Shown here: positions 1 to 13,284 of the stretch, one piece after another
How the letters are laid out: each line of letters begins with the position of its first letter
How positions within the stretch are numbered: the stretch's first letter is position 1
NCBI GenBank assembly: GCA_003482905.1
Contig: DMXM01000042.1
Location: forward strand, 2,398 to 66,397
Reading direction: 5' to 3'
Length of the DNA stretch: 64,000 nt
From: Elusimicrobiota bacterium
GTDB lineage: Bacteria; Elusimicrobiota; Elusimicrobia; Elusimicrobiales; UBA9959
Program-made: the position numbers and the translations under genes
The notes under the pieces: generated by a model
Seen by the model: the letters and a program-made list of their open reading frames with translations, nothing else
Told to the model about the DNA's origin: nothing
Databases searched by the model: none

Positions 1-2
1 GC

Positions 3-1445
3 ATCACCTTCCATCCGGTAGAATTCGAAGGAACGAAGTGGATATTTAAAGAGGCCATAGTCGGCAATCTTTACGACCGGCCCCGGGCACAGGTCGATCA
101 CAATGTGCCCTTCATTTCCAACGGCGCGGAGCTGGGGCGGCTGGAGTATGTGATAGACCTGGTGGATGTGAACGCGGCGGTGTTCGGGCAGAACTACGTG
201 CTGTTCATAACCGTGGTGGTCTTCTTTATCGGCCTGCTGGCTCTTTCCAATGTGGGGGCCATAAAAACTATTTTCAGCATAGAACACTGCGTGGACGAGA
301 CCAACGCCCTGGTGGCCGCCGGCGAGCATTCTAAAATACAGGATTCCATACAGCGCAACATCGAGTCCCTGCCGCAAAGTCTGAGGAACACGCCTTTTGC
401 GGTGCTTATAAGCCGCCTCGCCGAGGTGCTTCAAAAAGCTTCCAGACTGGAAAGCGAGCTGGCGGTTTCAAAGGCCACGGCGGACCTGGCCGCGCAGGTG
501 GCGCACGATATACGATCGCCATTGGCGGCCTTGGGGGCGGCGGCCAAAGGGCTTGATCTGCCGGAAGAGCAACGCAAGCTTATTGAGGGCGCCGTGGGGC
601 GCATGCAGGGCATAGCCGATGACCTGCTCAACCGCTACCGCGCGCCTTCAGCCGCGCAAGCCAGGGCCAAGCCCGCGCCGCATGATTTGAGCGGCCTTAT
701 AGAACAGGTATTGGCCGAGAAACGGCTGCAGCACAAAGATAAAACCGGCGTTAATATAGAATTCAACAACGACGCCGGGCAATTAAAAGCCCTGGTGGAA
801 CCGAAAGAACTGCAGCGCCTGCTGTCCAACCTGGTAAACAACTCGGTTGAGGCTTTTGAAAACAACGGCACGGTGACCGTCGGCCTGTCTTCTACTGATG
901 GCAAGGTTTTAATAGAAGTTAAGGACAACGGCAAAGGCATCTTGCCGGAAATACTCGCGAAGCTCGGCCAAAAAGGCGAGACGCACGGAAAAGCCGGCGG
1001 TAACGGGCTTGGCCTTTATCACGCGGTCACCGCGGTTGAGAGCTGGGGCGGCAATTTAAGGCTGGAGTCAGTATTAGGCAGCGGCACTACCGTAACCATA
1101 GAGCTGCCGCGCGTAAAAGCCGCAGGGTCGGTAGGGCCTACAGTGCTGCTGGACGACGATATGCTGGTGCATATGAACTGGAAGATGGCCGCCAATGCGT
1201 CGGGGGCGGAATTTAAGGCCTATAAGACCCCGCAAGACTTTGCCGCGGGCATTTCTGATCTGTCCAAAGACGCGGCCATTTATATAGATTCGGAACTCGG
1301 CAACGATATTAAAGGCGAGGACATCGCCAAAGACCTGCACGAAAAAGGATTTTCCAATATAACCATGGCCACCGGCCACAGCCCAGAGCAATTCGCCCAC
1401 CTCCCCTGGCTTAAAGTAACCGGCAAAGAACCCCCCTGGGCATAG
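3..1445 (+). CDS. Hybrid sensor histidine kinase (TM, HisKA, HATPase_c, C-terminal receiver); probably 5'-truncated by the window edge
   Basis: H-box AHDIRSPLAAL; N-box NLVNNSVEAF; G1 DNGKGI; G2 GNGLGL. C-terminal REC-like segment VLLDDD...IYIDSELG...MATGH...GKEPP. The track start is GTG at 105, but the same frame has no stop back to nt 3 and reads as ordinary protein sequence. Confidence 0.85.
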   Translation: MTFHPVEFEGTKWIFKEAIVGNLYDRPRAQVDHNVPFISNGAELGRLEYVIDLVDVNAAVFGQNYVLFITVVVFFIGLLALSNVGAIKTIFSIEHCVDETNALVAAGEHSKIQDSIQRNIESLPQSLRNTPFAVLISRLAEVLQKASRLESELAVSKATADLAAQVAHDIRSPLAALGAAAKGLDLPEEQRKLIEGAVGRMQGIADDLLNRYRAPSAAQARAKPAPHDLSGLIEQVLAEKRLQHKDKTGVNIEFNNDAGQLKALVEPKELQRLLSNLVNNSVEAFENNGTVTVGLSSTDGKVLIEVKDNGKGILPEILAKLGQKGETHGKAGGNGLGLYHAVTAVESWGGNLRLESVLGSGTTVTIELPRVKAAGSVGPTVLLDDDMLVHMNWKMAANASGAEFKAYKTPQDFAAGISDLSKDAAIYIDSELGNDIKGEDIAKDLHEKGFSNITMATGHSPEQFAHLPWLKVTGKEPPWA

Positions 1446-1494: not shown

Positions 1495-1539
1495 CTTTCT
1501 TTTCATTTGAGAATAAATATTCTCAAATGAAAATGTTTT
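1495..1539. promoter_or_regulatory. Putative enhancer (UAS) for the local sigma-54 activator: 45-bp block identical to 5295-5339, with a 34-bp near-perfect palindrome at its core (1500-1533)
   Basis: TTTTCATTTGAGAATAAATATTCTCAAATGAAAA; the arms pair perfectly from 1500/1533 inward except for the central AA. It lies about 80 bp upstream of the -24 element. Confidence 0.7.
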
Positions 1540-1596
1540 ATCCCGATTTCCTGACCATATTCCCTTAACAATGCGAGTTTTGGCCTGTTTTAGGCT

Positions 1597-1612
1597 TGGC
1601 ATAAGTATTGCT
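1597..1612 (+). promoter_or_regulatory. Sigma-54 (-24/-12) promoter
   Basis: TGGCAT-AAGTA-TTGCT matches TGGCAC-N5-TTGCW. The first ATG (1657) is about 45 nt downstream of the -12 element. The extended sequence TTGGCATAA..ATTGCTCT is shared with 5417 and 8142. Confidence 0.8.
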
Positions 1613-1656
1613 CTGTAGGGGGTGCAGGCAGTAAAAAAATAACCTGGAGGGGAATT

Positions 1657-1749
1657 ATGAAGATAAAACTGATAAAAGATGTGGAGCGGCGCGGGATATT
1701 CTACGGGTCAAGGAATTTCTGCACTGGATTCTGTAATCTTAAGCTCTAA
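1657..1749 (+). CDS. 30-aa candidate RiPP precursor peptide MKIKLIKDVERRGIFYGSRNFCTGFCNLKL (not in the ORF track)
   Basis: GGAGG (1646-1650) lies 6 nt before the ATG. The TAA stop is immediately followed by the ATG of the radical SAM gene. The C-terminal FCTGFC motif sits in a small peptide next to a SPASM enzyme. Confidence 0.6.
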   Translation: MKIKLIKDVERRGIFYGSRNFCTGFCNLKL

Positions 1750-3093
1750 ATGGGCGCGGCTGGCAGATCCATGCCGGGAGCTGTGAGGCCCGGCATGGAT
1801 CAAAAAATGGACAATATGAAAAACCTAAAACCTTCCGTATACAATGAAACTATAAATGAGGGCGACAAAACTTACCTCTATAACTTTTACAGCGGCGCTA
1901 TTGTGGAAATGGAGGGTGGCGCGCAGTTGGAGGCAGCCGGAGTTTCCATGCAAGACGCAGCTTTGCTGAAAGAGAAAGGGTTCCTGGTGGATAAAAATAT
2001 TGACGAACTGAAGAGGTTGGAATTCTCGTATTTGTCCGGCAAGTTCAATAAAAGTTCTTTAGGGCTAACTCTTTGCACCACGCTCGAGTGCAATTTCAGC
2101 TGTCCTTATTGCTATGAAGGGAAGAGCCGGACCGGCTCGGCCATGAGCCCCGAAGTCATAACCAAGATTTTAGAATTCGTCCGGATGAAGCTGAAGGACA
2201 ACAACATAAACACACTGTACGTGAATTTCCTGGGCGGGGAAGCCCTGCTCAGGCTGGACGTACTCAGCGCGGTCCTGGCGGGCCTGAAAGCGGAGGCCGC
2301 GAGAAAGAACGTGGTGCTAGTTGCCGGGCTGGTAACCAACGGCTACTTGCTGGACGAGGCCATGAAAGTTATAGACATGCCGGGGGACATACAGAGTGTA
2401 CAGGTGACGTTCGACGGTTTTGGCGTCAGTCATGACAAGATGCGGCGGCTTGCAGGCGGTATAGGCAGCTTTGAACGGATATTCGCCAACATGGTACTTG
2501 CGCTGGAAAAAGGCGTGCGCGTCGCCGCCAGGTATAACCTGACCGGAGACAATGCCACCGACGCGACGCTGCTTATAGACAAGCTGGCCGGGCTTGAAAA
2601 AAAGCCGTTGCTCTACTTTGGGCATGTCAGCGCGGTCGGGAGTGCGGACACCTGCAAGTCCGTTTCCTGCATGAGCCGCATGGACTATTCTAAGGCGGAC
2701 CTAAAGCTGGCCCGGTATGCGGCGTCAAAAGGCGTAAAGACTGACTTCATGCCCGTCGGCAAGGGGAACTACTGCACTGCGGACGCGGTGAACGGGTTTA
2801 CCATAGACCCGGAGGGGGACATCTATAAATGCTGGAGTTCCGTAGGCAGAAAAGAATTAGCCTGCGGCAGCGTGCTGGTGGCCGCACCGGAAGAATGCAT
2901 AACCGACGAGAGCCGCTACTACATGTACACCATGGACAATCCTTTCCAGGATACCTGCGCGTCCTGCAAGCTGCTGCCTATCTGCATGGGCGGCTGCCCG
3001 GTAGAAAGACAGGCCGGTGGCAGGCAGTGCTCGAAATTTAAATTCCAGGACATGGAATTTATAAAATTATACACGGAAGGGGTTTTAAGATGA
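1750..3093 (+). CDS. Radical SAM / SPASM-domain peptide-modifying enzyme with an N-terminal ~90-aa extension (RRE-like)
   Basis: CNFSCPYC (CxxxCxxC). SPASM signature CTADAVNGFTIDPEGDIYKC (Cx13Gx4C) and CASCKLLPICMGGC (Cx2Cx5Cx3C). Alternative internal starts exist at 1795, 1807 and 1816. Confidence 0.9.
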   Translation: MGAAGRSMPGAVRPGMDQKMDNMKNLKPSVYNETINEGDKTYLYNFYSGAIVEMEGGAQLEAAGVSMQDAALLKEKGFLVDKNIDELKRLEFSYLSGKFNKSSLGLTLCTTLECNFSCPYCYEGKSRTGSAMSPEVITKILEFVRMKLKDNNINTLYVNFLGGEALLRLDVLSAVLAGLKAEAARKNVVLVAGLVTNGYLLDEAMKVIDMPGDIQSVQVTFDGFGVSHDKMRRLAGGIGSFERIFANMVLALEKGVRVAARYNLTGDNATDATLLIDKLAGLEKKPLLYFGHVSAVGSADTCKSVSCMSRMDYSKADLKLARYAASKGVKTDFMPVGKGNYCTADAVNGFTIDPEGDIYKCWSSVGRKELACGSVLVAAPEECITDESRYYMYTMDNPFQDTCASCKLLPICMGGCPVERQAGGRQCSKFKFQDMEFIKLYTEGVLR

Positions 3094-4313
3094 GAAACTT
3101 TTACTTTCTTTTTTTCGCACAGATGGTATCCCTCAGCGGTAGCGTGTTAAACTCGGTGGTTTCGATGTTCTGGGTTTACAGCATAACAGGCTCACTGTCT
3201 GGTTCTATACTCTCTGGCTTCTTTCCGGTAGCGGTGTACTTCCTGATCTCCACTTTCGCGGCCGCCATGGTGGAGCGGGGGAGTAAAAAGAATTACGTGC
3301 TCCTGGGCGAGGCCGCGCAGGCTTTGGTTTTCCTGGCGTTCTTTGTAATGGCCAAGTACGGGATAAAAAATATTTACGCTGTGTACGCCCTGCAGGGGAT
3401 AGTCGGCCTGGCGAGCGCTTTCTTCTCCCCGGCTATGGCGGCCTGGGAAATGGAATATATAAGGGATGTGTATCGCAAGATGGCCGGGAAGATTCACGCA
3501 GCCATGGCCGTACTAAACCTTTTATTCACGCTTGCCGGAGGCCTTCTGGCCGCCCGCGTGCCGTTCCATTACATCTTCCTCTACAACGCTGCTTCCTTCG
3601 GCGCGGCGTTCTTGATAGAGGTTTTTATCCGGGAGCCGGCGCGGGGTGCGCCTAAAGCGGAGGTGGCGGGCCGGACCCGCCTGCTTTCCGAAATGGCCGA
3701 GGGGTTTAGGTATGTAATCGCGGAAAAACCCGCGGTATTTTCCAGCATTCTGATGCTTTCAATGATAAATATGTTCTTCGCGCCGTTGGCCAACGTCATG
3801 CCGGTGTTTGTCAAGGCCGGGCTAAATCTCGGCCCAGACGCTTTCAGTTATGCCATGATTGCCAGCATGGCCGGGTCCATGGCCGCAGGGTTCTCTGTGA
3901 ATAAGGTTGGCCGATTGAACATTTCCATGCTCCTGCTTTTCTGCGTAGTGGACGCGGGATTGTGCTTTCTTATGTACTTCCTTACCGGCCTTGGCGCCCT
4001 ATTGCTGGTCATGATGGTGGTGGGATTCATCGTCAGCCTCATGACCATAGCGGTAAAGATAGAGGTCAGCACCGTAAAGCCCGAATATTACTGTAAGGTT
4101 CAGGCTCTCAGCGAGAACATTTCCGGTCTGCTGGTGCCGGTGGGAATAGTGATAATGTCGGTGCTGGCCGGTGCTGGCGGGGTGAGGACGCCATTCTTGT
4201 TCTCGGGCATCGCCCTGCTAGCGGTAGCGGGGCTGGTCAGGCTTCTGATATTCTCCGGCAGGTTCGGGAGGATCCTTGCCGCGCAAGGTTCCACGGCCTC
4301 GGGAGGGATATGA
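3090..4313 (+). CDS. MFS-type transporter (multi-TM), putative exporter
   Basis: About 12 hydrophobic segments across 407 aa. ATGA overlap with the radical SAM stop codon. Resembles MFS_3/EntS-like exporters in general architecture only. Confidence 0.7.
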   Translation: MRNFYFLFFAQMVSLSGSVLNSVVSMFWVYSITGSLSGSILSGFFPVAVYFLISTFAAAMVERGSKKNYVLLGEAAQALVFLAFFVMAKYGIKNIYAVYALQGIVGLASAFFSPAMAAWEMEYIRDVYRKMAGKIHAAMAVLNLLFTLAGGLLAARVPFHYIFLYNAASFGAAFLIEVFIREPARGAPKAEVAGRTRLLSEMAEGFRYVIAEKPAVFSSILMLSMINMFFAPLANVMPVFVKAGLNLGPDAFSYAMIASMAGSMAAGFSVNKVGRLNISMLLLFCVVDAGLCFLMYFLTGLGALLLVMMVVGFIVSLMTIAVKIEVSTVKPEYYCKVQALSENISGLLVPVGIVIMSVLAGAGGVRTPFLFSGIALLAVAGLVRLLIFSGRFGRILAAQGSTASGGI

Positions 4314-4486
4314 ATATTATAGCGTCGCTGCTGCAGATCCTGGGAGGAAATTGCATGGCCGCTGAAACTAAAGGCTGGGAATTCAAAGCGTCGGGGGACT
4401 CGGAGATACGGGTGGGGACCGAGGTCGGCGGGGTGGTATTCCCGGCCGCAGGGAGGGCGGTGGAAGCGGAACTGACGGGGGAATAA
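4310..4486 (+). CDS. 58-aa ORF, a truncated paralogue of the N-terminus of the downstream DUF4097-like protein (possible gene remnant; not in the ORF track)
   Basis: MNIIASLLQILGGNCMAAETKGWEFKASGDSEIRVGTEVGGVVFPAAGRAVEAELTGE aligns with MGYLGIIMIFLGGNCMATKNTNNWEFKAADVAVIQVETDSGEVVLEAAEGEVIKVEVTGE. The nucleotide block CTGGGAGGAAATTG(C/T)ATGGC is shared. ATGA overlap with the MFS stop. Confidence 0.45.
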   Translation: MNIIASLLQILGGNCMAAETKGWEFKASGDSEIRVGTEVGGVVFPAAGRAVEAELTGE

Positions 4487-4512
4487 TTATCCGCCGGATT
4501 GGAGGAAGGTAT

Positions 4513-5241
4513 ATGGGGTATTTAGGGATCATAATGATATTTCTGGGAGGAAATTGTATGGCTACGAAAAACACTAATAATTGGGAATTCAAGGCGGCGG
4601 ATGTGGCGGTTATTCAGGTAGAGACCGATTCCGGCGAGGTGGTCCTGGAAGCGGCGGAGGGAGAGGTTATAAAGGTGGAAGTAACCGGAGAATATGATGC
4701 TGACAAATGCGAGGTTTCAGCTGCGCTCAGCGGCTCAAAACTTATGGCGTCGGCAAAGGGTAAAAAGAAATGGTTCTGGAACAGCGCCAACTGCAAAGCG
4801 GGTTTCAGGATCACCGCGCCAGCGGGAAAGAAACTGATAGTGAGATCCGGCGCCGGCAAGGCCGGGCTTGCCGGGTTTGCGGCGGGAGCGGATGTGTTTT
4901 CGGGCGCCGGAAGCATAGAATTCAAGGGTGTTTCCGGTCCGATAAGCGTCAAAAGCGGCGCGGGCACCATAAAAGGCGATATCTACTCTGAAGAATTCAG
5001 CGCCAGTGTCGGGGCTGGGGCCATCGATCTTTCCTGGAATAAGGCGCCTGAAAAAGGCAGGGCGGATATAAAAACCGGCGCCGGGGGAGTAACTCTGGCC
5101 TTCCCGGCCGATAGCAGAATAAACGTAAATTACAAGGCGGGCGTCGGGAATCTGAGCAATGAGCTTGGGAGTGATCCCTCGGCCGGGTTTAATGTGGATG
5201 TTAAAAGCGGCGCGGGCAGCCTTAGCATAAAGAAACGGTAG
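4513..5241 (+). CDS. DUF4097/LiaG-like beta-strand-repeat protein with a short hydrophobic N-terminus
   Basis: Repeated (V/I)K(S/T)GAG-x-(I/L/V) strands: VKSGAGTIKGD, VGAGAIDLSW, IKTGAGGVTLAF, VKSGAGSLSIKK. GGAGGA lies 7 nt before ATG 4513. An alternative start at 4558 also has an SD. Confidence 0.7.
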   Translation: MGYLGIIMIFLGGNCMATKNTNNWEFKAADVAVIQVETDSGEVVLEAAEGEVIKVEVTGEYDADKCEVSAALSGSKLMASAKGKKKWFWNSANCKAGFRITAPAGKKLIVRSGAGKAGLAGFAAGADVFSGAGSIEFKGVSGPISVKSGAGTIKGDIYSEEFSASVGAGAIDLSWNKAPEKGRADIKTGAGGVTLAFPADSRINVNYKAGVGNLSNELGSDPSAGFNVDVKSGAGSLSIKKR

Positions 5242-5263: not shown

Positions 5264-5304
5264 AAGAGGCGAACTGGAAGGAACCAGCTCGCCTCTTTCT
5301 TTTC
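5264..5304 (+). terminator. Rho-independent terminator after the DUF4097-like gene
   Basis: 14-bp stem AAGAGGCGAACTGG / CCAGCTCGCCTCTT (one mismatch), 6-nt loop, then TCTTTTC. The 3' arm runs into the repeated enhancer block. Confidence 0.6.
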
Positions 5305-5339
5305 ATTTGAGAATAAATATTCTCAAATGAAAATGTTTT
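5295..5339. promoter_or_regulatory. Second copy of the 45-bp enhancer block (palindrome 5300-5333)
   Basis: Identical base for base to 1495-1539. It lies about 100 bp upstream of the -24 element at 5418. Confidence 0.7.
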
Positions 5340-5417: not shown

Positions 5418-5433
5418 TGGCATAATAATTGCT
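5418..5433 (+). promoter_or_regulatory. Sigma-54 (-24/-12) promoter
   Basis: TGGCAT-AATAA-TTGCT. The first usable ATG downstream is 5474. Confidence 0.8.
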
Positions 5434-5473: not shown

Positions 5474-5659
5474 ATGAAAACCAAGACGATAATGGCGGCG
5501 GTAATAACCGGGATGGCGGTATTGATGATAGCCGGCATGGCGAATATGCCGTCCCAAAGCAGCCTAGCGGCGGGATCTGACGGTTCAAAAAGAATATCCC
5601 AGCGGTCGGGCGGCGCGGCCGGGGCCAGCCTGGCAATGGTTTATTACGCCGAAAAATAA
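5474..5659 (+). CDS. 61-aa small secreted/membrane protein (signal-peptide-like N-terminus)
   Basis: MKTKTIMAAVITGMAVLMIAGMA... The track start at 5429 lies inside the -12 promoter element, so the ATG at 5474 (same frame) is used. Confidence 0.5.
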   Translation: MKTKTIMAAVITGMAVLMIAGMANMPSQSSLAAGSDGSKRISQRSGGAAGASLAMVYYAEK

Positions 5660-5764
5660 AGTACGCGGTGCAATAAAACTATTTTGCGAATAATGCGGGC
5701 GGGCTGTTGCGGCAAGCGGGGGTAGGACGGCCCGCCCCATAGATCTAAAGACAATGGAGATAAC

Positions 5765-6331
5765 ATGAAGGATAGGATGAGAGCTGCGGGCGGGGTGATA
5801 TTGGCGGCGGCGGTTATTTTTGGCGCCGCCGCGGCGCGGGCTGAAATTGCCGTGGATATGCGCGGTGGCGGCCACATGCGGCTGGCTGCAGATGGTGGCG
5901 CGGCGCGCCGCGCCGCCCTGCTGGAAAATATTTCAGGCGCGGTGGACCGCCTGGCCGCCGCCGGGGATATGGCTGAAAAAGAAGTGCTGCTGGCCGGTTT
6001 ATACGCCGGTTCCACGCCGGCCGGGGCCGCCCCGGCGGTTAACGTAGAGGCCGTCCGCCTTCCGGCCGCAAGCGCGGCCAAGGCCGCGCCCGCCTCCGGG
6101 GCAAGGTCGGCCGTTGGGGAATTGGGTGCCGAAGCGCCGTCCGGCGCGGACGGTGAGGCGCCCGAGGTCTCTGGCGGGGAGCCCGAGGAGGATGAGGAGA
6201 CGGAGGCAGGTTATGCCTTCTCCGGATACCATGGCGCCGACGACGCCGATAAGCCGACCTTCGGCAGCATGCTGCTGGCCGCCGCCATAGGCCTGCTGGT
6301 GGTGGCTTTCTTCGTGCTGATACTGATCTAA
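5765..6331 (+). CDS. Ala/Gly/Glu-rich hypothetical protein with an N-terminal signal peptide and a C-terminal TM anchor
   Basis: N-terminus GGVILAAAVIFGAAAARA; acidic stretch GGEPEEDEETE; C-terminus MLLAAAIGLLVVAFFVLILI. GGAG SD before the ATG. Confidence 0.55.
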   Translation: MKDRMRAAGGVILAAAVIFGAAAARAEIAVDMRGGGHMRLAADGGAARRAALLENISGAVDRLAAAGDMAEKEVLLAGLYAGSTPAGAAPAVNVEAVRLPAASAAKAAPASGARSAVGELGAEAPSGADGEAPEVSGGEPEEDEETEAGYAFSGYHGADDADKPTFGSMLLAAAIGLLVVAFFVLILI

Positions 6332-6491
6332 GGGCTCGTCAAGAAATAACTGACACAATTTGAAGGCCCGTCTTTGGCCGATTCCTTCGTTGCTCCTCAC
6401 TCACAGACCGCCGGTATGCTCGTTCGTCGCGCCTCGGACTCGGCTCAAATCCAGACCCCCAAATCGCGCCATTTATTTCTTGACGAGCCCT
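6331..6491. repeat. 19-bp perfect inverted repeat bracketing a 123-bp spacer between convergent genes
   Basis: AGGGCTCGTCAAGAAATAA (6331-6349) is the exact reverse complement of 6473-6491. Both flanking stop codons touch the arms. Confidence 0.8.
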
Positions 6492-6669
6492 AAGCGGTTT
6501 TGCCCAGCGCCTGGACGGTCTTCGCTATCTCGTCGGCGGCCGCGGTCATAAGGGCCAGCATCTCTTTTTTTTCTCCGGCGGAGCAGTCCTTGTAAAGGTC
6601 CGCGGCGCTTTTGAGGCTGGCGCATTTGGATTTAAGGTCGTGCAGAAGTTTTGTGAGATCAGCGGTCAT
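6490..6669 (-). CDS. 59-aa helical ORF coupled to the activator gene; possible mini-HPt-like phosphotransfer protein (not in the ORF track)
   Basis: MTADLTKLLHDLKSKCASLKSAADLYKDCSAGEKKEMLALMTAAADEIAKTVQALGKTA. Its ATG overlaps the bEBP stop (ATGA at 6666-6669). LLHDLKSKCASL resembles the HPt H-x-L-K-G/S motif. Confidence 0.45.
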   Translation of the reverse strand: MTADLTKLLHDLKSKCASLKSAADLYKDCSAGEKKEMLALMTAAADEIAKTVQALGKTA

Positions 6670-8027
6670 TTCTTGTCCCCCGGCAGGGCTATTCCCAGTC
6701 TTTTAATGGTGGCGTAAAGCAGCCTGGTGGATATCTTCAGGTCCTCCAGGGTTTTTGTTTTCTTGCCGCCGTTCTCCCGCAGGTTCCTGGCTATTATCTC
6801 GCCAGAGATCTTTTCCAGGGCGGCTTCCAGGCCGCGTTTCAGCGCGTCGGTATAGACGGCATCCGGCCCGCCGGCCGCCTCCGGCGCGCGGCGGGGCGCG
6901 CCCTGGCCGCCCTTCAGATGCTTCTGCACGGTATCAAGGCCCACGCGGCCGCCCTCGCCGCTGGACAGCAGGTCTATGAATTTCTTAAGTTCGCGCACAT
7001 TGCCGGGCCAGGCGTAATCTTCCATCCAGGCGCGGGCCTCGGCGGTGAAAGACAGGCGCTTGCCGCCCTTGGTGAAATGCTGCGCCAGCAGGAACACGTC
7101 GGTTTTTCTGTCGGCCAGCGGTTTAAGGTTTATGGTGTAGCCGTGTACGCGCTGGAACAGGTCGAAGCGCATTTTCCCTTTGGCTATCAGGTCCTGCGGG
7201 TCTTCCAGCGTGGCGCTGATGACGCGGAACTCCGAGTGCTCCGGTTTCTCCGAACCCAGCGGGTAGAAAGAGCGCTCCTCTATGGCCTTGAGCAGTTTAG
7301 ACTGCATGCCCAGGCTCATGGCTCCTATCTCGTCCAGAAAAAGCGTGCCCTTATGGGCCTCCAGCAGGCGGCCCTTGCGGCTGTCCGCGGCCCCGGTGAA
7401 AGCGCCCTTCCTGTAGCCGAAGAGCTCGGCTTCCAGCAGGTCCTCGCCGTAGGCGGAGCAGTTTATGGCCACAAAGGCGCCCTCGCGGCCGGAATGTTCG
7501 TGCAGCACTTTCGCCAGGGAGGTCTTGCCGGTGCCCGACGGGCCAAGTATAAGGATGGGTAGTTCGGTGGGGGCGTATTTCAGGGCCTCGCCGGCGGCCG
7601 CCTTGGTTTCCGGGTCTCCGGTGATGAAGGCGGAGGTGAAAATATCCGTCGCGGCCGCGGCTTTCCTGTTCTGGAGGAACTTGCGCAGGATGTCCGCCAC
7701 GTTGGATTCCTCGTTGCCCTTAGAGTAGAAATCCCCGGCGCCCAGTTCGTACGCGCGGTCTATGATCTCGTCGGAATCGGAGCTGGAGACCACCACCGCG
7801 TAGACGTTCCTGGCCGCGGCGGCGGCTATGGCCCGCAGGCCCGAGTAATCGTCGTCAGGGCCCAGCATCAGGTCGAAGAATCCGAGGTCGTAGCGGTTGG
7901 CCTCTATCTTCTTCAGGGCGGTTTTTAGGTCCCCGGCCAGGTCCACGTTGTGGGCGGCCAGGCGGGAGGCCATTATCTTCTGCGCCAGTTTGTCGTCTTC
8001 AAGCACCAGTATGTTAAGTTTTTGCAT
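6666..8027 (-). CDS. Sigma-54-dependent response regulator (REC + AAA+ + Fis-type HTH; NtrC family bEBP)
   Basis: Receiver ILVLEDD...FFDLMLG. Walker A GPSGTGKT; GAFTGA loop (YRKGAFTGA); EAELFGY; Walker B LFLDEIG. C-terminal HTH LEDLKISTRLLYATIKRLGI. Confidence 0.95.
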   Translation of the reverse strand: MQKLNILVLEDDKLAQKIMASRLAAHNVDLAGDLKTALKKIEANRYDLGFFDLMLGPDDDYSGLRAIAAAAARNVYAVVVSSSDSDEIIDRAYELGAGDFYSKGNEESNVADILRKFLQNRKAAAATDIFTSAFITGDPETKAAAGEALKYAPTELPILILGPSGTGKTSLAKVLHEHSGREGAFVAINCSAYGEDLLEAELFGYRKGAFTGAADSRKGRLLEAHKGTLFLDEIGAMSLGMQSKLLKAIEERSFYPLGSEKPEHSEFRVISATLEDPQDLIAKGKMRFDLFQRVHGYTINLKPLADRKTDVFLLAQHFTKGGKRLSFTAEARAWMEDYAWPGNVRELKKFIDLLSSGEGGRVGLDTVQKHLKGGQGAPRRAPEAAGGPDAVYTDALKRGLEAALEKISGEIIARNLRENGGKKTKTLEDLKISTRLLYATIKRLGIALPGDKK

Positions 8028-8142: not shown

Positions 8143-8158
8143 TGGCATAATAATTGCT
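8143..8158 (+). promoter_or_regulatory. Sigma-54 (-24/-12) promoter
   Basis: TGGCAT-AATAA-TTGCT, identical to the copy at 5418. ATG 8206 with a GAGGT SD lies about 48 nt downstream of the -12 element. Confidence 0.8.
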
Positions 8159-9321: not shown

Positions 9322-9395
9322 GGGCCCGTAGCTCAGTTGGTTAGAGCAAACGACTCATAATCGTTGGGTCGAAGGTTCAAGTCCTTCCGGGCCCA
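9322..9395 (+). tRNA. tRNA with CAU anticodon (elongator Met, or Ile2 if lysidinylated)
   Basis: Cloverleaf: acceptor GGGCCCG/CGGGCCC, D stem GCTC/GAGC, anticodon stem AACGA/TCGTT with loop CTCATAA, T arm GAAGG-TTCAAGT-CCTTC. No encoded CCA. Confidence 0.95.
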
Positions 9396-9401
9396 GTATT
9401 T

Positions 9402-11043: not shown

Positions 11044-11921
11044 AAACCAAAAGACAGATAATCAAGATAGACGAGCGGTTATGCGACGGCTGCGGCAATT
11101 GCGTGACCGGCTGCCATGAGGGCGCGCTGCAGGTGATAGACGGAAAGGCCCGCCTGATCAGCGACCTGCTCTGCGACGGCCTGGGCGCCTGCATAGGCGA
11201 ATGCCCCCGCGGCGCTATAAAAATAGAGGAGCGCCAGGCCGAGCCCTACGACGAGGTTAAAGTGATGGAGGGCATGGTAAAACACGGGGCCAACACCATA
11301 AAGGCCCACCTTAAACATCTTAAAGACCACGCGCAGAAAACGTTTTTAAATCAGGCCTTTGATTACCTGAAACAGCATAACATTCCCAATCCAATGGAGG
11401 AAGAAAAAGACATGTCAAAAGATAAAGAGAGCAAACACAAGCACGGCGGCCACGAACCCTGCGGCTGCCCCGGCGGGCGGACCATGGACCTGCGCGAAAC
11501 CTGCGGCTGCGAAGAAGGGACCGGCGATCCCGCCGCCAAGTCCCAACTGCGCCAGTGGCCGGTGCAGCTGCATCTGGCCTCCCCCATGGCGCCCTACTTC
11601 GAAAAGGCCGATGTGGTAATAGCCGCGGACTGCACGGCTTACGCCTACGGCAACTTTCACAACGATTTCATAAAAGGAAAAGCCATAGTTATCGCCTGCC
11701 CCAAACTTGACGACGGCCAGGAGATCTACGCCGAAAAGATCCAGGCGCTGATCGAGGACGCCAAGGTGAACACGCTCACCGTGGTCACCATGGAAGTGCC
11801 CTGCTGCAACGGCCTGCTGGCCATGGTAAAGACCGCCGCCGCGGCTGCCGGCCGCAAAGTGCCCATAAAGCACGTGGTCATAGGCATACAGGGCGGCATA
11901 AAGAGCGAGGCTTGGGCGTAA
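11040..11921 (+). CDS. 4Fe-4S dicluster domain protein with a His/Cys-rich linker and a conserved C-terminal domain
   Basis: CDGCGNCVTGC and CDGLGACIGECP ferredoxin motifs. Linker HKHGGHEPCGCPGG...ETCGCEEG. C-terminus ACPKLDD...MEVPCCNGL. ATGA overlap with the Rrf2 stop. Confidence 0.8.
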   Translation: MKTKRQIIKIDERLCDGCGNCVTGCHEGALQVIDGKARLISDLLCDGLGACIGECPRGAIKIEERQAEPYDEVKVMEGMVKHGANTIKAHLKHLKDHAQKTFLNQAFDYLKQHNIPNPMEEEKDMSKDKESKHKHGGHEPCGCPGGRTMDLRETCGCEEGTGDPAAKSQLRQWPVQLHLASPMAPYFEKADVVIAADCTAYAYGNFHNDFIKGKAIVIACPKLDDGQEIYAEKIQALIEDAKVNTLTVVTMEVPCCNGLLAMVKTAAAAAGRKVPIKHVVIGIQGGIKSEAWA

Positions 11922-12018
11922 AGAGACGCCGCAAGGTCAGGGATAAAGGCCTTTCCAGTCCCTGGCGGGGCGGCATTTAATTGAGAAAGCGGCTGGATTT
12001 TTGATAAGATATTTTTAC

Positions 12019-12090
12019 GGTGCGGTGGCCAAGTGGTAAGGCGAGAGTCTGCAAAACTCTTATTCGTGGGTTCGATTCCCACCCGCACCT
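12019..12090 (+). tRNA. tRNA-Cys (GCA)
   Basis: Acceptor GGTGCGG/CCGCACC with discriminator T. Anticodon stem AGAGT/ACTCT with loop CTGCAAA. T arm GTGGG-TTCGATT-CCCAC. Confidence 0.95.
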
Positions 12091-12123
12091 TAAAAATTTT
12101 CGGTGAAGTGCCCGCTTTCACCT

Positions 12124-13284
12124 ATGAACCTCAGCAGACTTGCCCTCTCCCTCGGCCAATCGGCCACCCTTAAGTTGAACGAATTAGCCAACAACCTTAA
12201 AGCCGAGGGCAAGCCCGTCATCCACCTGGGCGGCGGCGAACCCGAGGAAAAAATACCCAGCGGAGCTTTCGAGGAAAGCCGCAAAATGCTGGACGGCGGG
12301 TTTGTGCGCTACACTCCCGTCTCCGGCACGGCCCCCCTTAAAAAAGAGATAGCCGCCTACACCGAGGCTTATTACGGCGTAAAACCCGGCCCAAAGAACA
12401 TAGTGGTGGCCTCCGGGGCCAAGCAGGCCATTTACAATTTTTTAATTTCAGTGGTGGACCCGGGCGACCAGGTGATCTTCCCCGCGCCTTACTGGGTGAG
12501 CTACCCGGAAATGGTGCGCCTGGCCTACGGCCTGCCGGTTATAGTGCGCCCGCCCAAAGGCGAGCTGCTGGTTTCAGCCGCCGACATCGAGGCCCATCTT
12601 ACCAGCCGCACCAAAGCCATACTGCTCAACAGTCCCAATAACCCTTCCGGCCAGGTATATAGCGAAGACTTCGTGCGCGAAATGGTGGAGATCTGCGAAC
12701 ACCGCAATATCTACCTGCTCATGGACGACATCTACAACCGCCTGGTGTTCGACGGCCAGAAAGCCCCGTCGGCCTTTAATTTCTCCAAGCGGCCCCTGAA
12801 CGAGTCCATTATCGTCTCAATAAACGGCGTGTCCAAGACTTTCTCCATGACCGGCTACCGCATAGGCTGGAGCGTGGCCAACGAGGCCCTGACCCAGGCC
12901 ATGGTAAAAGTGCAGGCGCAGGTCTCTTCCTGCCCGTCGGCGCTCAGCCAGGCCGCCGCGGCCGGGGCGCTGCGCGAAGGGAACGGCTTTGTGGAAGCCC
13001 TGCGCGCGGGGCTCGAGAAAAAGCGCGACGTGATGGTGGCCGAGCTCTCCAAATTTAAAAAGGTGAAACTTAACGCGCCGCAGGGGACTTTCTACAGTTT
13101 TCCGGATTTCAGCGCCTACGAGCCCGACTCGACCAGGCTTTCTAATATGCTGCTGGAAAAAGCCATGGTGGTGACGGTGCCGGGCGTGGAGTTCGGCCTG
13201 GAAGGCCACCTGCGCCTGAGCTACTGCGGCTCGGAAGCCGACATAGTGGAAGGCGTTTCCCGTATCCGTAAAATACTGGACTGA
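12124..13284 (+). CDS. Class I pyridoxal-phosphate-dependent aminotransferase (aspartate aminotransferase-like)
   Basis: PLP-lysine motif SKTFSMTGYRIGW; NSPNNPSG. The track start (GTG 12103) is only 13 nt after the tRNA, so ATG 12124 (MNLSRLAL...) is preferred. Confidence 0.85.
   Translation: MNLSRLALSLGQSATLKLNELANNLKAEGKPVIHLGGGEPEEKIPSGAFEESRKMLDGGFVRYTPVSGTAPLKKEIAAYTEAYYGVKPGPKNIVVASGAKQAIYNFLISVVDPGDQVIFPAPYWVSYPEMVRLAYGLPVIVRPPKGELLVSAADIEAHLTSRTKAILLNSPNNPSGQVYSEDFVREMVEICEHRNIYLLMDDIYNRLVFDGQKAPSAFNFSKRPLNESIIVSINGVSKTFSMTGYRIGWSVANEALTQAMVKVQAQVSSCPSALSQAAAAGALREGNGFVEALRAGLEKKRDVMVAELSKFKKVKLNAPQGTFYSFPDFSAYEPDSTRLSNMLLEKAMVVTVPGVEFGLEGHLRLSYCGSEADIVEGVSRIRKILD

Follow-up and report, generated by a model that had tools for sequence, protein, structure and literature searches.

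The window analysed here, a 64,000-nt stretch of an Elusimicrobiota contig, carries close to its start a gene cassette in which a short open reading frame (ORF) precedes a radical S-adenosylmethionine (SAM) enzyme with a SPASM domain and a major facilitator superfamily (MFS) transporter. We read positions 1500-5241 as a sigma-54-dependent operon for a ribosomally synthesised peptide with post-translational modifications (RiPP), forming a divergent branch, centred on Elusimicrobia, of the radical SAM/SPASM systems for the maturation of cysteine-rich peptides, and assign this reading a probability of about 0.72. The genes and motifs that the initial annotation had described from the letters of the DNA are all present where it had placed them. 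The related loci compared with the window are designated by L-numbers (L001 is from Elusimicrobia RIFOXYA12_FULL_51_18, and L099 from the AT-rich metagenome-assembled genome GCA_015232015.1). The features of the cassette, in window coordinates, are the following:

1500-1533, no strand assigned: 34-nt palindrome TTTTCATTTGAGAATAAATATTCTCAAATGAAAA, a putative enhancer (upstream activating sequence, UAS) for a bacterial enhancer-binding protein (bEBP); an identical second copy lies at 5300-5333, with 0 expected
1597-1612, + strand: predicted sigma-54 -24/-12 promoter TGGCATAAGTATTGCT (TGGCAT-N5-TTGCT), before the precursor gene
1646-1650, + strand: Shine-Dalgarno sequence GGAGG, read from the sequence, 6 nt before the precursor ATG
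1657-1749, + strand: putative precursor gene, 30 aa MKIKLIKDVERRGIFYGSRNFCTGFCNLKL, with its TAA stop at 1747-1749; conserved, leader under selection, no family match
1766-1801, + strand: GC-rich hairpin of 13 bp, lying after the precursor stop and before the start of the enzyme gene
1816-3093, + strand: predicted radical SAM/SPASM peptide maturase, 425 aa; start placed by alignment, ORF open from 1750
3090-4313, + strand: MFS transporter (H+ antiporter 2A0121 / Mef-like), its start overlapping the enzyme stop
4310-4486, + strand: truncated duplicate, 58 codons, of the next gene's 5′ end, aligned with the single copy in L001
4513-5241, + strand: Toastrack (DUF4097)/LiaG-like protein that carries a signal peptide at its N-terminus and a conserved GGNC motif (LiaG, E 7e-10; DUF4097, E 1e-3)

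A conserved small ORF with the anatomy of a RiPP precursor

In at least five lineages, a small ORF lies immediately 5′ of the orthologues of the radical SAM/SPASM enzyme and the MFS transporter. In every related locus it stands before the enzyme with a ribosome-binding site (GGAGG or GGAG in relatives). It is more than a chance reading frame, as shown by the predictions of gene callers and by its conservation before orthologous enzymes. The window peptide consists of a 21-aa leader MKIKLIKDVERRGIFYGSRNF followed by a 9-aa core, CTGFCNLKL. Its relatives, written as leader-core, are these:

L001 and L010: MKIRLIKDVERRGIFYGSRNF-CTVFCNLKS
L004 (two tandem copies) and L007: MKFRMIKDVERQGISYVSRNF-GCGNNCGCQGCKEAVL
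L011, L090 and L093: MRIKMVREVQRKGITFVSRNF-GCGNNCGCQGCAQINVPDSNPPH
L099: (M)KIIRNKIRKELNLVSRNF-GCGNKCGGQCGNKCGCQGDNQHI

The peptides of L004 and L007 are identical, and each of the tandem copies in L004 has a separate ribosome-binding site. The L099 gene starts with GTG and encodes a longer core with five cysteines. The leaders have the conserved motif xKDVERxGIxYxSRNF, and the usual core of the family is GCGNxCGCQGC, with four closely spaced cysteines. The core of the window and L001, CT(G/V)FCNLK(L/S), retains the first C-x3-C only and is thus an outlier within its own family. The sole core feature common to all variants is cysteine, as a C-x3-C directly after SRNF(G).

The N-terminal 21 residues of the precursor are under strong purifying selection. 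Over codons 2-21, the proportion of synonymous differences (pS) is 0.45-1.0 against 0-0.29 for non-synonymous ones (pN); the values for the window and L007 are 0.89 and 0.17, and L004a differs from L007 by 9 synonymous and 0 non-synonymous changes. A profile search of the whole database gave only six peptide clusters, three of them further GC(G/S)NxCGCQG-type variants. A degenerate leader pattern, too strict for the L099 type, had four matches in metagenomes, all from lineages already known. Scans of the precursors with Pfam and NCBIfam returned no family, in keeping with the earlier remark that the peptide fits no recognised one. Overall, these comparisons indicate a real, conserved gene whose product has the layout of a RiPP precursor, a leader ending in SRNF and then a cysteine-containing core. 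The initial annotation had proposed that the 30-mer is such a precursor from the window only, and had suggested looking for it in homologous loci; the proposal is now strengthened by the conserved leader, the cysteines of the C-terminus, the adjoining enzyme in every lineage, the recurrence before orthologous enzymes in at least five lineages, and the tandem copies of L004.

In all lineages (L001, L004, L007, L011, and L099), a GC-rich hairpin of differing sequence stands after the precursor stop, formed by the 45-66 nt next to it. In the window it lies in a 76-nt stretch with a folding energy of -28.4 kcal/mol (z = -2.9); across lineages the folded stretches range from -28 to -36 kcal/mol (z from -2.7 to -6.7), and in L099 the hairpin is followed by a U-run. 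An Rfam scan of the cassette gave no match. By analogy with other operons, this placement is the classic arrangement for an excess of the precursor message over the enzyme message. It also bears on the start of the enzyme gene. The ATG at 1750 abuts the precursor stop and opens an ORF of 447 codons to 3093, with alternative ATGs at 1795 and 1807. The codons 1750-1815 encode the hairpin and show no conservation as protein, and the orthologues begin at the position equivalent to the ATG at 1816 (MKNLKPS...). We therefore prefer 1816, 3′ of the hairpin, as the most likely start. The close coupling of peptide and enzyme formerly proposed, with the stop of one gene abutting the start of the other, most likely stems from taking the longest ORF, which reads through the hairpin.

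A stable hairpin directly 3′ of the ORF stop in every lineage, together with cysteine codons near the end of the ORF, might also suggest a regulatory upstream ORF: a cysteine-codon attenuator, with the substrate of the enzyme encoded elsewhere. This is contradicted by conservation at the amino-acid level, which extends to the non-cysteine residues of the leader, and by the tandem copies of L004, each equipped for its own translation. The enzyme also belongs to a peptide-maturase clade and has a modelled N-terminal domain that may be of the leader-binding type, and no alternative antiterminator pairing was seen, although no search was aimed at one. We consider an attenuator highly improbable.

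The predicted maturase, its partner transporter and the proposed modification

The enzyme carries the SAM motif CNFSCPYC, whose cysteines C92, C96, and C99 are invariant among 36 homologues, and it matches PF04055 with 49 bits (cut-off 29.5). Both SPASM motifs are present, Cx13Gx4C (CTADAVNGFTIDPEGDIYKC) and Cx2Cx5Cx3C (CASCKLLPIC MGGC) with one further cysteine, and the seven SPASM cysteines are conserved (C320, C339, C381, C384, C390, C394, and C405). The SPASM model TIGR04085 gives 53 bits for a cut-off of 27, which confirms the complete signature noted before. Comparisons with more specific models of peptide and sulfatase maturases, the latter known as anaerobic sulfatase-maturating enzymes (anSME), gave the following scores:

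Clo7bot (TIGR04334): 232 bits, cut-off 600
TIGR04463: 229 bits, cut-off 525
CefB: 188 bits, cut-off 600
Geopeptide: 155 bits, cut-off 400
PapB (NF047865): 117 bits, cut-off 340
SCIFF maturase (TIGR03974): 67 bits, cut-off 425
anSME (TIGR03942): 61 bits, cut-off 349

The top NCBIfam matches are all RiPP maturases. By its profile scores, the protein is thus a peptide-maturase-type radical SAM/SPASM enzyme outside all defined families, and the distance between 232 bits for Clo7bot and 61 bits for anSME bears out the initial view of a peptide maturase with an N-terminal extension rather than a sulfatase maturase. We take the Clo7bot, TIGR04463, CefB, and geopeptide families, as well as CteB, to act on cysteine-rich or cysteine-containing peptides, as their names suggest. 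CteB is the closest solved structure by sequence (E 7e-34) and also by fold. The AlphaFold2 model of the enzyme (mean predicted local distance difference test, pLDDT, 88.7) has CteB as its best Foldseek match (E 2e-17; template-modelling (TM) score 0.68-0.70), with an alignment of about the full length of the model, followed by TigE, the 4th-best match, and then by SuiB, anSME, and SkfB. For TigE and SuiB, as for CteB, the number of aligned columns is close to the number of residues in the model.

The extension before CxxxCxxC measures 91 residues when counted from 1816, the first cysteine of the SAM motif being residue 92. In the model, its residues 1-77 form a domain of 3-4 strands followed by helices, and the alignment suggests that the Elusimicrobial clade has lost one helix which other members of the family possess. 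The initial annotation had called the enzyme RRE-like, after the RiPP precursor recognition element, a PqqD-like winged helix. The extension stands; the assignment to RRE is weakly supported. The sole match of an N-terminal profile among known structures is the N-terminus of TigE (residues 10-95), a weak one with E 0.014. With the domain modelled separately (pLDDT 84), the stand-alone leader-binding domains TbiB1, a lasso B1 protein, and PbtF fill most of the top 9 Foldseek ranks, at non-significant values (best E 0.21, TM score about 0.4).

In every lineage the enzyme is partnered by an orthologue of this transporter, which is retained even in L099, the distant one (E 9e-36). An ATGA at 3090-3093 joins the stop of the enzyme gene to the start of the MFS gene, and a further overlap, at 4310-4313, links the MFS stop to the following ATG, both as described earlier; transporter and enzyme are translationally coupled. 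The MFS orthologues have weak matches to MFS_3/EntS-type models. Both genes are under purifying selection between the window and L001, with a ratio of non-synonymous to synonymous substitution rates (dN/dS) of 0.10 for the enzyme and 0.12 for the transporter. We considered whether the two-cysteine core marks a decaying cassette and rejected this, since these ratios show that the lineage is not decaying.

The nature of the modification can be approached only through relatives. The nearest families all act on cysteine-rich peptides and CteB is the closest structure, and from these two points we propose one or two thioether crosslinks as the most likely product. The confidence with which sactipeptide or ranthipeptide chemistry was first put forward is not upheld. 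The radical SAM/SPASM enzymes of RiPP pathways are chemically diverse, and this one scores under every family cut-off. TigE, the 4th-best fold match and the sole match of the N-terminal domain in the PDB, is a cyclopropylglycine synthase (PMC10878394). The enzyme could accordingly make a C-C or ether crosslink, epimerise a residue, or rearrange a side chain, with the cysteines serving in a disulfide or as metal ligands. On the other side stand the presumed cysteine-rich or cysteine-containing substrates of the four best-scoring families and of CteB, and the fact that cysteine is the one feature kept in all cores. We regard such other chemistry as plausible but somewhat unlikely, and retain thioether formation as the working proposal.

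Predicted promoters, regulatory unit and probable recombination

The precursor promoter has GG at -24 and GC at -12 in canonical spacing and is kept at the same place in L001, L004, L007, L011, L090, L093, and L099 (in the latter as TGGCCCCATAATTGCT), and no convincing sigma-70 promoter was found before the precursor. TGGCAT-N5-TTGCT occurs three times in the window where 0.07 are expected, all within this locus, and none of 100 shuffles reached three. The palindrome lies about 65-85 bp 5′ of the first two promoters, and a half-site precedes the third. A putative palindromic enhancer is found in all lineages with upstream DNA (all but one). L001, L004, and L007 have a conserved form of the window's sequence 5′ of the precursor; the palindrome of the L011 type is a different one. 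This is the pattern expected for a protein-binding site. Hence, the conservation of the -24/-12 promoter and the upstream enhancer across lineages argues for the sigma-54 control that was suggested initially. The regulatory genes and the remaining features are the following:

1-1445, + strand: sensor histidine kinase gene, of which the window edge leaves the 3′ part (HisKA, HATPase_c; 560 aa in the source contig)
5300-5333, no strand assigned: second copy of the putative palindromic UAS, identical to 1500-1533
5418-5433, + strand: second predicted sigma-54 promoter, TGGCATAATAATTGCT, before two small ORFs; the L007 equivalent is at 9398
5474-5659 and 5765-6331, + strand: two small ORFs of 61 and 188 aa, 3′ of the second promoter, no family match
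6490-6669, - strand: short ORF, 59 aa, which overlaps the end of the bEBP gene; found with the bEBP in L007 and L097 (73-76% identity)
6666-8027, - strand: NtrC-type response regulator and sigma-54 activator (bEBP; Sigma54_activat 185 bits, Response_reg, AAA+ with GAFTGA)
8143-8158, + strand: third predicted sigma-54 promoter, before the sigma-54-like gene; the intergenic region and promoter are kept in L097 and L098
8209-9258, + strand: sigma-54-like protein, 349 aa, only the C-terminal DNA-binding domain recognisable (Sigma54_DBD)

The bEBP is 91% identical to that of L007 and 72-78% identical to those of L097 and L098, which have no cassette; its C-terminal helix-turn-helix (HTH) was read by eye. 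The sigma-54-like protein scores 58 bits with TIGR02395 (cut-off 277), covering model positions 291-433 only. The database contains over 120 clusters of it at 52-90% identity, those with a name being from Elusimicrobia throughout, and it is far commoner than the cassette. The protein looks unusually short, a trait that seems lineage-wide, and may be autoregulated, having a sigma-54-type promoter of its own. Two tRNA genes lie on the + strand, one just 3′ of the sigma-54-like gene (9322-9395) and one at 12019-12090. The unit of 59-aa ORF, bEBP, and sigma-54 occurs without the cassette in L097 (6294-12163) and L098 (6305-9068), and in L097 it continues with SBP_bac_5 and kinase genes. In both loci the unit adjoins a pair of M16 peptidases. 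The initial annotation had described a sigma-54/bEBP/kinase circuit dedicated to the cassette; this does not hold, since the unit exists without it and the same type of enhancer and promoter precedes other operons. The idea that the sigma-54 gene is a paralogue dedicated to the cassette was rejected because of its many clusters and its presence in L097 and L098.

Other operons of this kind occur in the relatives and in the window. L001 has a second cassette at 11409-12883, under the same palindrome and a sigma-54-like promoter. It contains a 39-aa ORF MKNTNNDKMEVLQSEAEILALIDSDALEMPSWDDGCYVR and a hairpin, together with genes for an anSME/DynA-like radical SAM enzyme of 358 aa and for an ABC transporter. 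In L011, a third sigma-54 promoter precedes another radical SAM gene. The 61-aa and 188-aa ORFs of the window have orthologues in L007 (52% and 48% identity). By eye, the former has a signal peptide or transmembrane segment, a short tail, and a conserved C-terminal LAMxYYAEK, and the latter a signal peptide and a C-terminal transmembrane segment. We read these arrangements as a conserved Elusimicrobiales two-component/sigma-54 unit that appears to control a variable set of peptide cassettes. As a separate observation, a third peptide cluster in L001 (73-5546; a 33-aa ORF, two radical SAM genes, and an ABC transporter) lies at the position of the window's kinase, and of the L001 kinase only the last ~15 codons are left, at about 5620-5660.

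The transmitter core of the kinase is 85% identical to that of L007 and 51% identical to that of L097. In the orthologous kinases of the window, L004, L007, and L097, the N-terminal sensor parts are all unrelated to each other (window 1-700; L094, where the full gene is present, 2264-2980). About 100 residues 3′ of the ATPase domain look receiver-like by eye and may be a receiver. In relatives, an SBP_bac_5 (peptide/nickel-type) binding protein adjoins the kinase, and this neighbouring periplasmic protein is as variable as the sensors. In the source contig, a 479-aa ORF 5′ of the kinase gave negative or non-significant results in comparisons with SBP_bac_5 by Pfam, BLASTP, and hhalign.

The cassette sits between the kinase and its apparent activator, and this, with the binding protein beside the kinase in relatives, raises the attractive possibility that the exported peptide is an autoinducer, sensed by the periplasmic binding protein and the kinase and acting through the bEBP and sigma-54 on its own promoter. 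We looked for a sensor or binding protein that co-varies with the peptide core and rejected this, because L004 and L007 make the same peptide with unrelated kinase sensors and with binding proteins only 28% identical, and because all sensors are hypervariable. The loop is weakened by these sensors, which do not track the peptide, and by the occurrence of the unit of binding protein, kinase, bEBP, and sigma-54 without the cassette. In addition, the ORF at the binding-protein position of the window's contig is not detectably SBP_bac_5, and the same enhancer precedes other operons. An autoinducer is therefore unlikely. Less probable still is a whole sigma-54-wired regulon for peptide quorum sensing and competition, in which a crosslinked RiPP autoinducer also co-induces the other radical SAM cassettes and the small ORFs read as secreted. 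If true, it would be an autoinducer regulon of a Gram-negative-type lineage, self-amplifying through an NtrC-type activator and the short Elusimicrobial sigma-54.

The peptide could also be a cysteine-based metallophore, exported by the EntS-like MFS protein while the two-component system reports metal status. The usual core, with its four closely spaced cysteines, and the weak MFS_3/EntS-type matches of the transporters would fit such a role, and SBP_bac_5 proteins include nickel-binding members. This explanation is weakened by the two-cysteine variant: in the window and L001 the core has two cysteines only, yet enzyme and pump are still under purifying selection. The conserved cassette has no uptake receptor or importer either, and we consider a metallophore improbable.

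The identities between loci differ sharply along the window. Relative to L007, they are 91% for the bEBP, 85% for the kinase core, 88% for the Toastrack protein, 60% for the enzyme, and 55% for the transporter. The enzyme is 83% identical to that of L001, and the transporter 77-79% identical to those of L001 and L004. The Toastrack gene is kept 3′ of the MFS gene in L001, L004, L007, and L011. In the window, its 5′ end is duplicated at the junction, and comparison with 4513-4700 shows that the first copy (4310-4486) is ended by a TAT-to-TAA change. This copy is 65-71% identical to the L001, L004, and L007 types and 57% to that of L011, and resembles the L001/L004 type at the protein level, whereas the intact second copy (from 4513) is 87% identical to the L007 type. 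We interpret the duplicate as probably the recombination scar of a cassette swap. The cassette has a GC content of 0.533 against 0.601 for the window, within the lowest 2.6% among windows of equal size, which supports by computation what had been judged by eye. The mosaic identities, the duplicate at the junction, and the lower GC together suggest that the segment of precursor, enzyme, and transporter was replaced by recombination, and point to a fast-evolving, recombining, lower-GC island set within a regulatory locus that is conserved in Elusimicrobiales. L099 (1388-4197 and 6455-8942; enzyme 40% identical), the member most distant from the window, adjoins TrbC/TraC/TraG-type conjugation genes, and this neighbourhood suggests horizontal mobility.

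The cassette is genuine and coherent but rare. Among 5.8 billion protein clusters, the enzyme has one identical copy, a single relative at 83% identity and three more at about 60%; all others are at 34% or less. An exhaustive HMMER scan of 1.84 billion representatives found only two close clusters (61% and 40% identity); beyond these, scores do not exceed 243 bits, and the superfamily comprises 1,350 proteins at E<=1e-30. The precursor family and the maturase clade are new, within a class that is well known.

Proposed pathway and comparison with known systems

Judging by motifs, spacing, and neighbourhood, the phosphorylated bEBP (6666-8027) would bind the palindrome at 1500-1533 and open the promoter at 1597-1612. 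By analogy with other RiPP operons, the hairpin at 1766-1801 would partly terminate, or stabilise, a short precursor message, and read-through past it would express the enzyme together with the MFS transporter and the Toastrack lipoprotein. The conserved leader (xKDVERxGIxYxSRNF) would be held by the domain of about 90 residues found at the N-terminus of the enzyme. The SAM cluster (C92/C96/C99) and two auxiliary clusters, for which the seven SPASM cysteines are available, would then modify the core, most likely by linking Cys22 and Cys26 through one or two thioethers to carbons of neighbouring residues in CTGFCNLKL. The conserved cassette has neither a peptidase nor an ABC-C39 exporter, as the initial annotation had remarked; a general peptidase outside the cassette would remove the leader, and the Mef/EntS-like pump would export a product of ~1 kDa. 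Our best guess is that this product is an extracellular agent for competition or signalling, made on cue from the flanking two-component system.

Several points weigh against this reading. No chemistry can be read from the sequence, and the enzyme lies below every NCBIfam equivalog cut-off. Radical SAM/SPASM enzymes with leader domains also make C-C, ether, and cyclopropyl products, e.g., TigE (PMC10878394). In the model, the N-terminal domain is RRE-like at a weakly supported level. The two-cysteine core of the window is unlike GCGNxCGCQGC, so its product may differ from those of the relatives. The cassette encodes no leader peptidase, and an MFS pump is unusual as a peptide exporter. The functions of promoter and enhancer are predictions from conserved motifs, and the palindrome also scores as a weak AT-rich terminator-like hairpin that could terminate the upstream gene.

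If the reading is right, the radical SAM RiPPs gain an undescribed precursor family, with the leader ...VSRNF and either GCGNxCGCQGC or CTGFCNLKL as core, together with the corresponding maturase clade. The 9-residue core with two cysteines would be a very small natural substrate, on which the chemistry of the enzyme would be easy to follow by mass spectrometry, and the contrast between the two-cysteine window and its four-cysteine relatives would be a natural experiment on substrate tolerance. With its conserved sigma-54 promoter and enhancer, the cassette offers a testable case of enhancer-dependent control of peptide natural products, and the locus would show a variable biosynthetic island swapped by recombination within a conserved regulatory frame. 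Elusimicrobia are a phylum almost uncultured. Our literature search found no paper on such peptides in Elusimicrobia and none tying sigma-54 to RiPP operons.

The regulatory part resembles NtrC-type sigma-54 systems such as AtoSC and ZraSR, with the same kinase, REC-AAA+(GAFTGA)-HTH activator (REC, receiver domain), palindromic enhancer, and -24/-12 promoter. It differs from them in that the target would be a RiPP operon and the sigma factor is a short 349-aa form with the DNA-binding domain alone recognisable. Among enzymes, anSME (PDB 4K36-4K39) has the radical SAM core and SPASM fold in common with the maturase. It aligns from residue 100 onwards only and has no counterpart of the N-terminal domain, in agreement with the earlier argument that sulfatase maturases lack a long N-terminal extension. 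CteB, the maturase of the SCIFF ranthipeptide thermocellin (PDB 5WGG and 5WHY), aligns over about the full length of the enzyme model, including the N-terminal domain and the SPASM domain with two auxiliary clusters; the identity is 18-19%, and the window precursor is not a SCIFF peptide. The TIGR04463, CefB (Cys-every-fifth), and geopeptide maturases have scores comparable to that of Clo7bot and are annotated as RiPP maturases with, by name, cysteine-rich targets. Their precursor pattern differs from the C-x3-C-x-C-x2-C, or C-x3-C only, found here.

The best-matching family of the enzyme is Clo7bot (precursor TIGR04333, maturase TIGR04334), a bioinformatically defined system of Clostridia with an identical order of domains. 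Its precursors, like that of the window, are short, begin with MK-hydrophobic-IK, and have an aromatic residue just before the cysteine-containing core. The window enzyme is about 32% identical to it and scores 232 bits for a cut-off of 600, whereas Clostridial relatives at 32-33% identity (e.g., L089) score 828. The Clostridial precursors (MKYIIKP...WYCYCSDCNVC, in tandem) match TIGR04333 with 34-50 bits, and the precursors of the window, L004, and L011 have no match to this model. Clo7bot has 3-7 tandem precursors; the Elusimicrobial cassette has one or two, with a longer leader of 21 aa. Unlike Clo7bot, the cassette is hosted by Elusimicrobia, has a predicted sigma-54 promoter, and includes genes for an MFS pump and a Toastrack protein. 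Its wiring is unusual and combines sigma-54 control, an MFS pump, and a Toastrack lipoprotein and dispenses with a peptidase.

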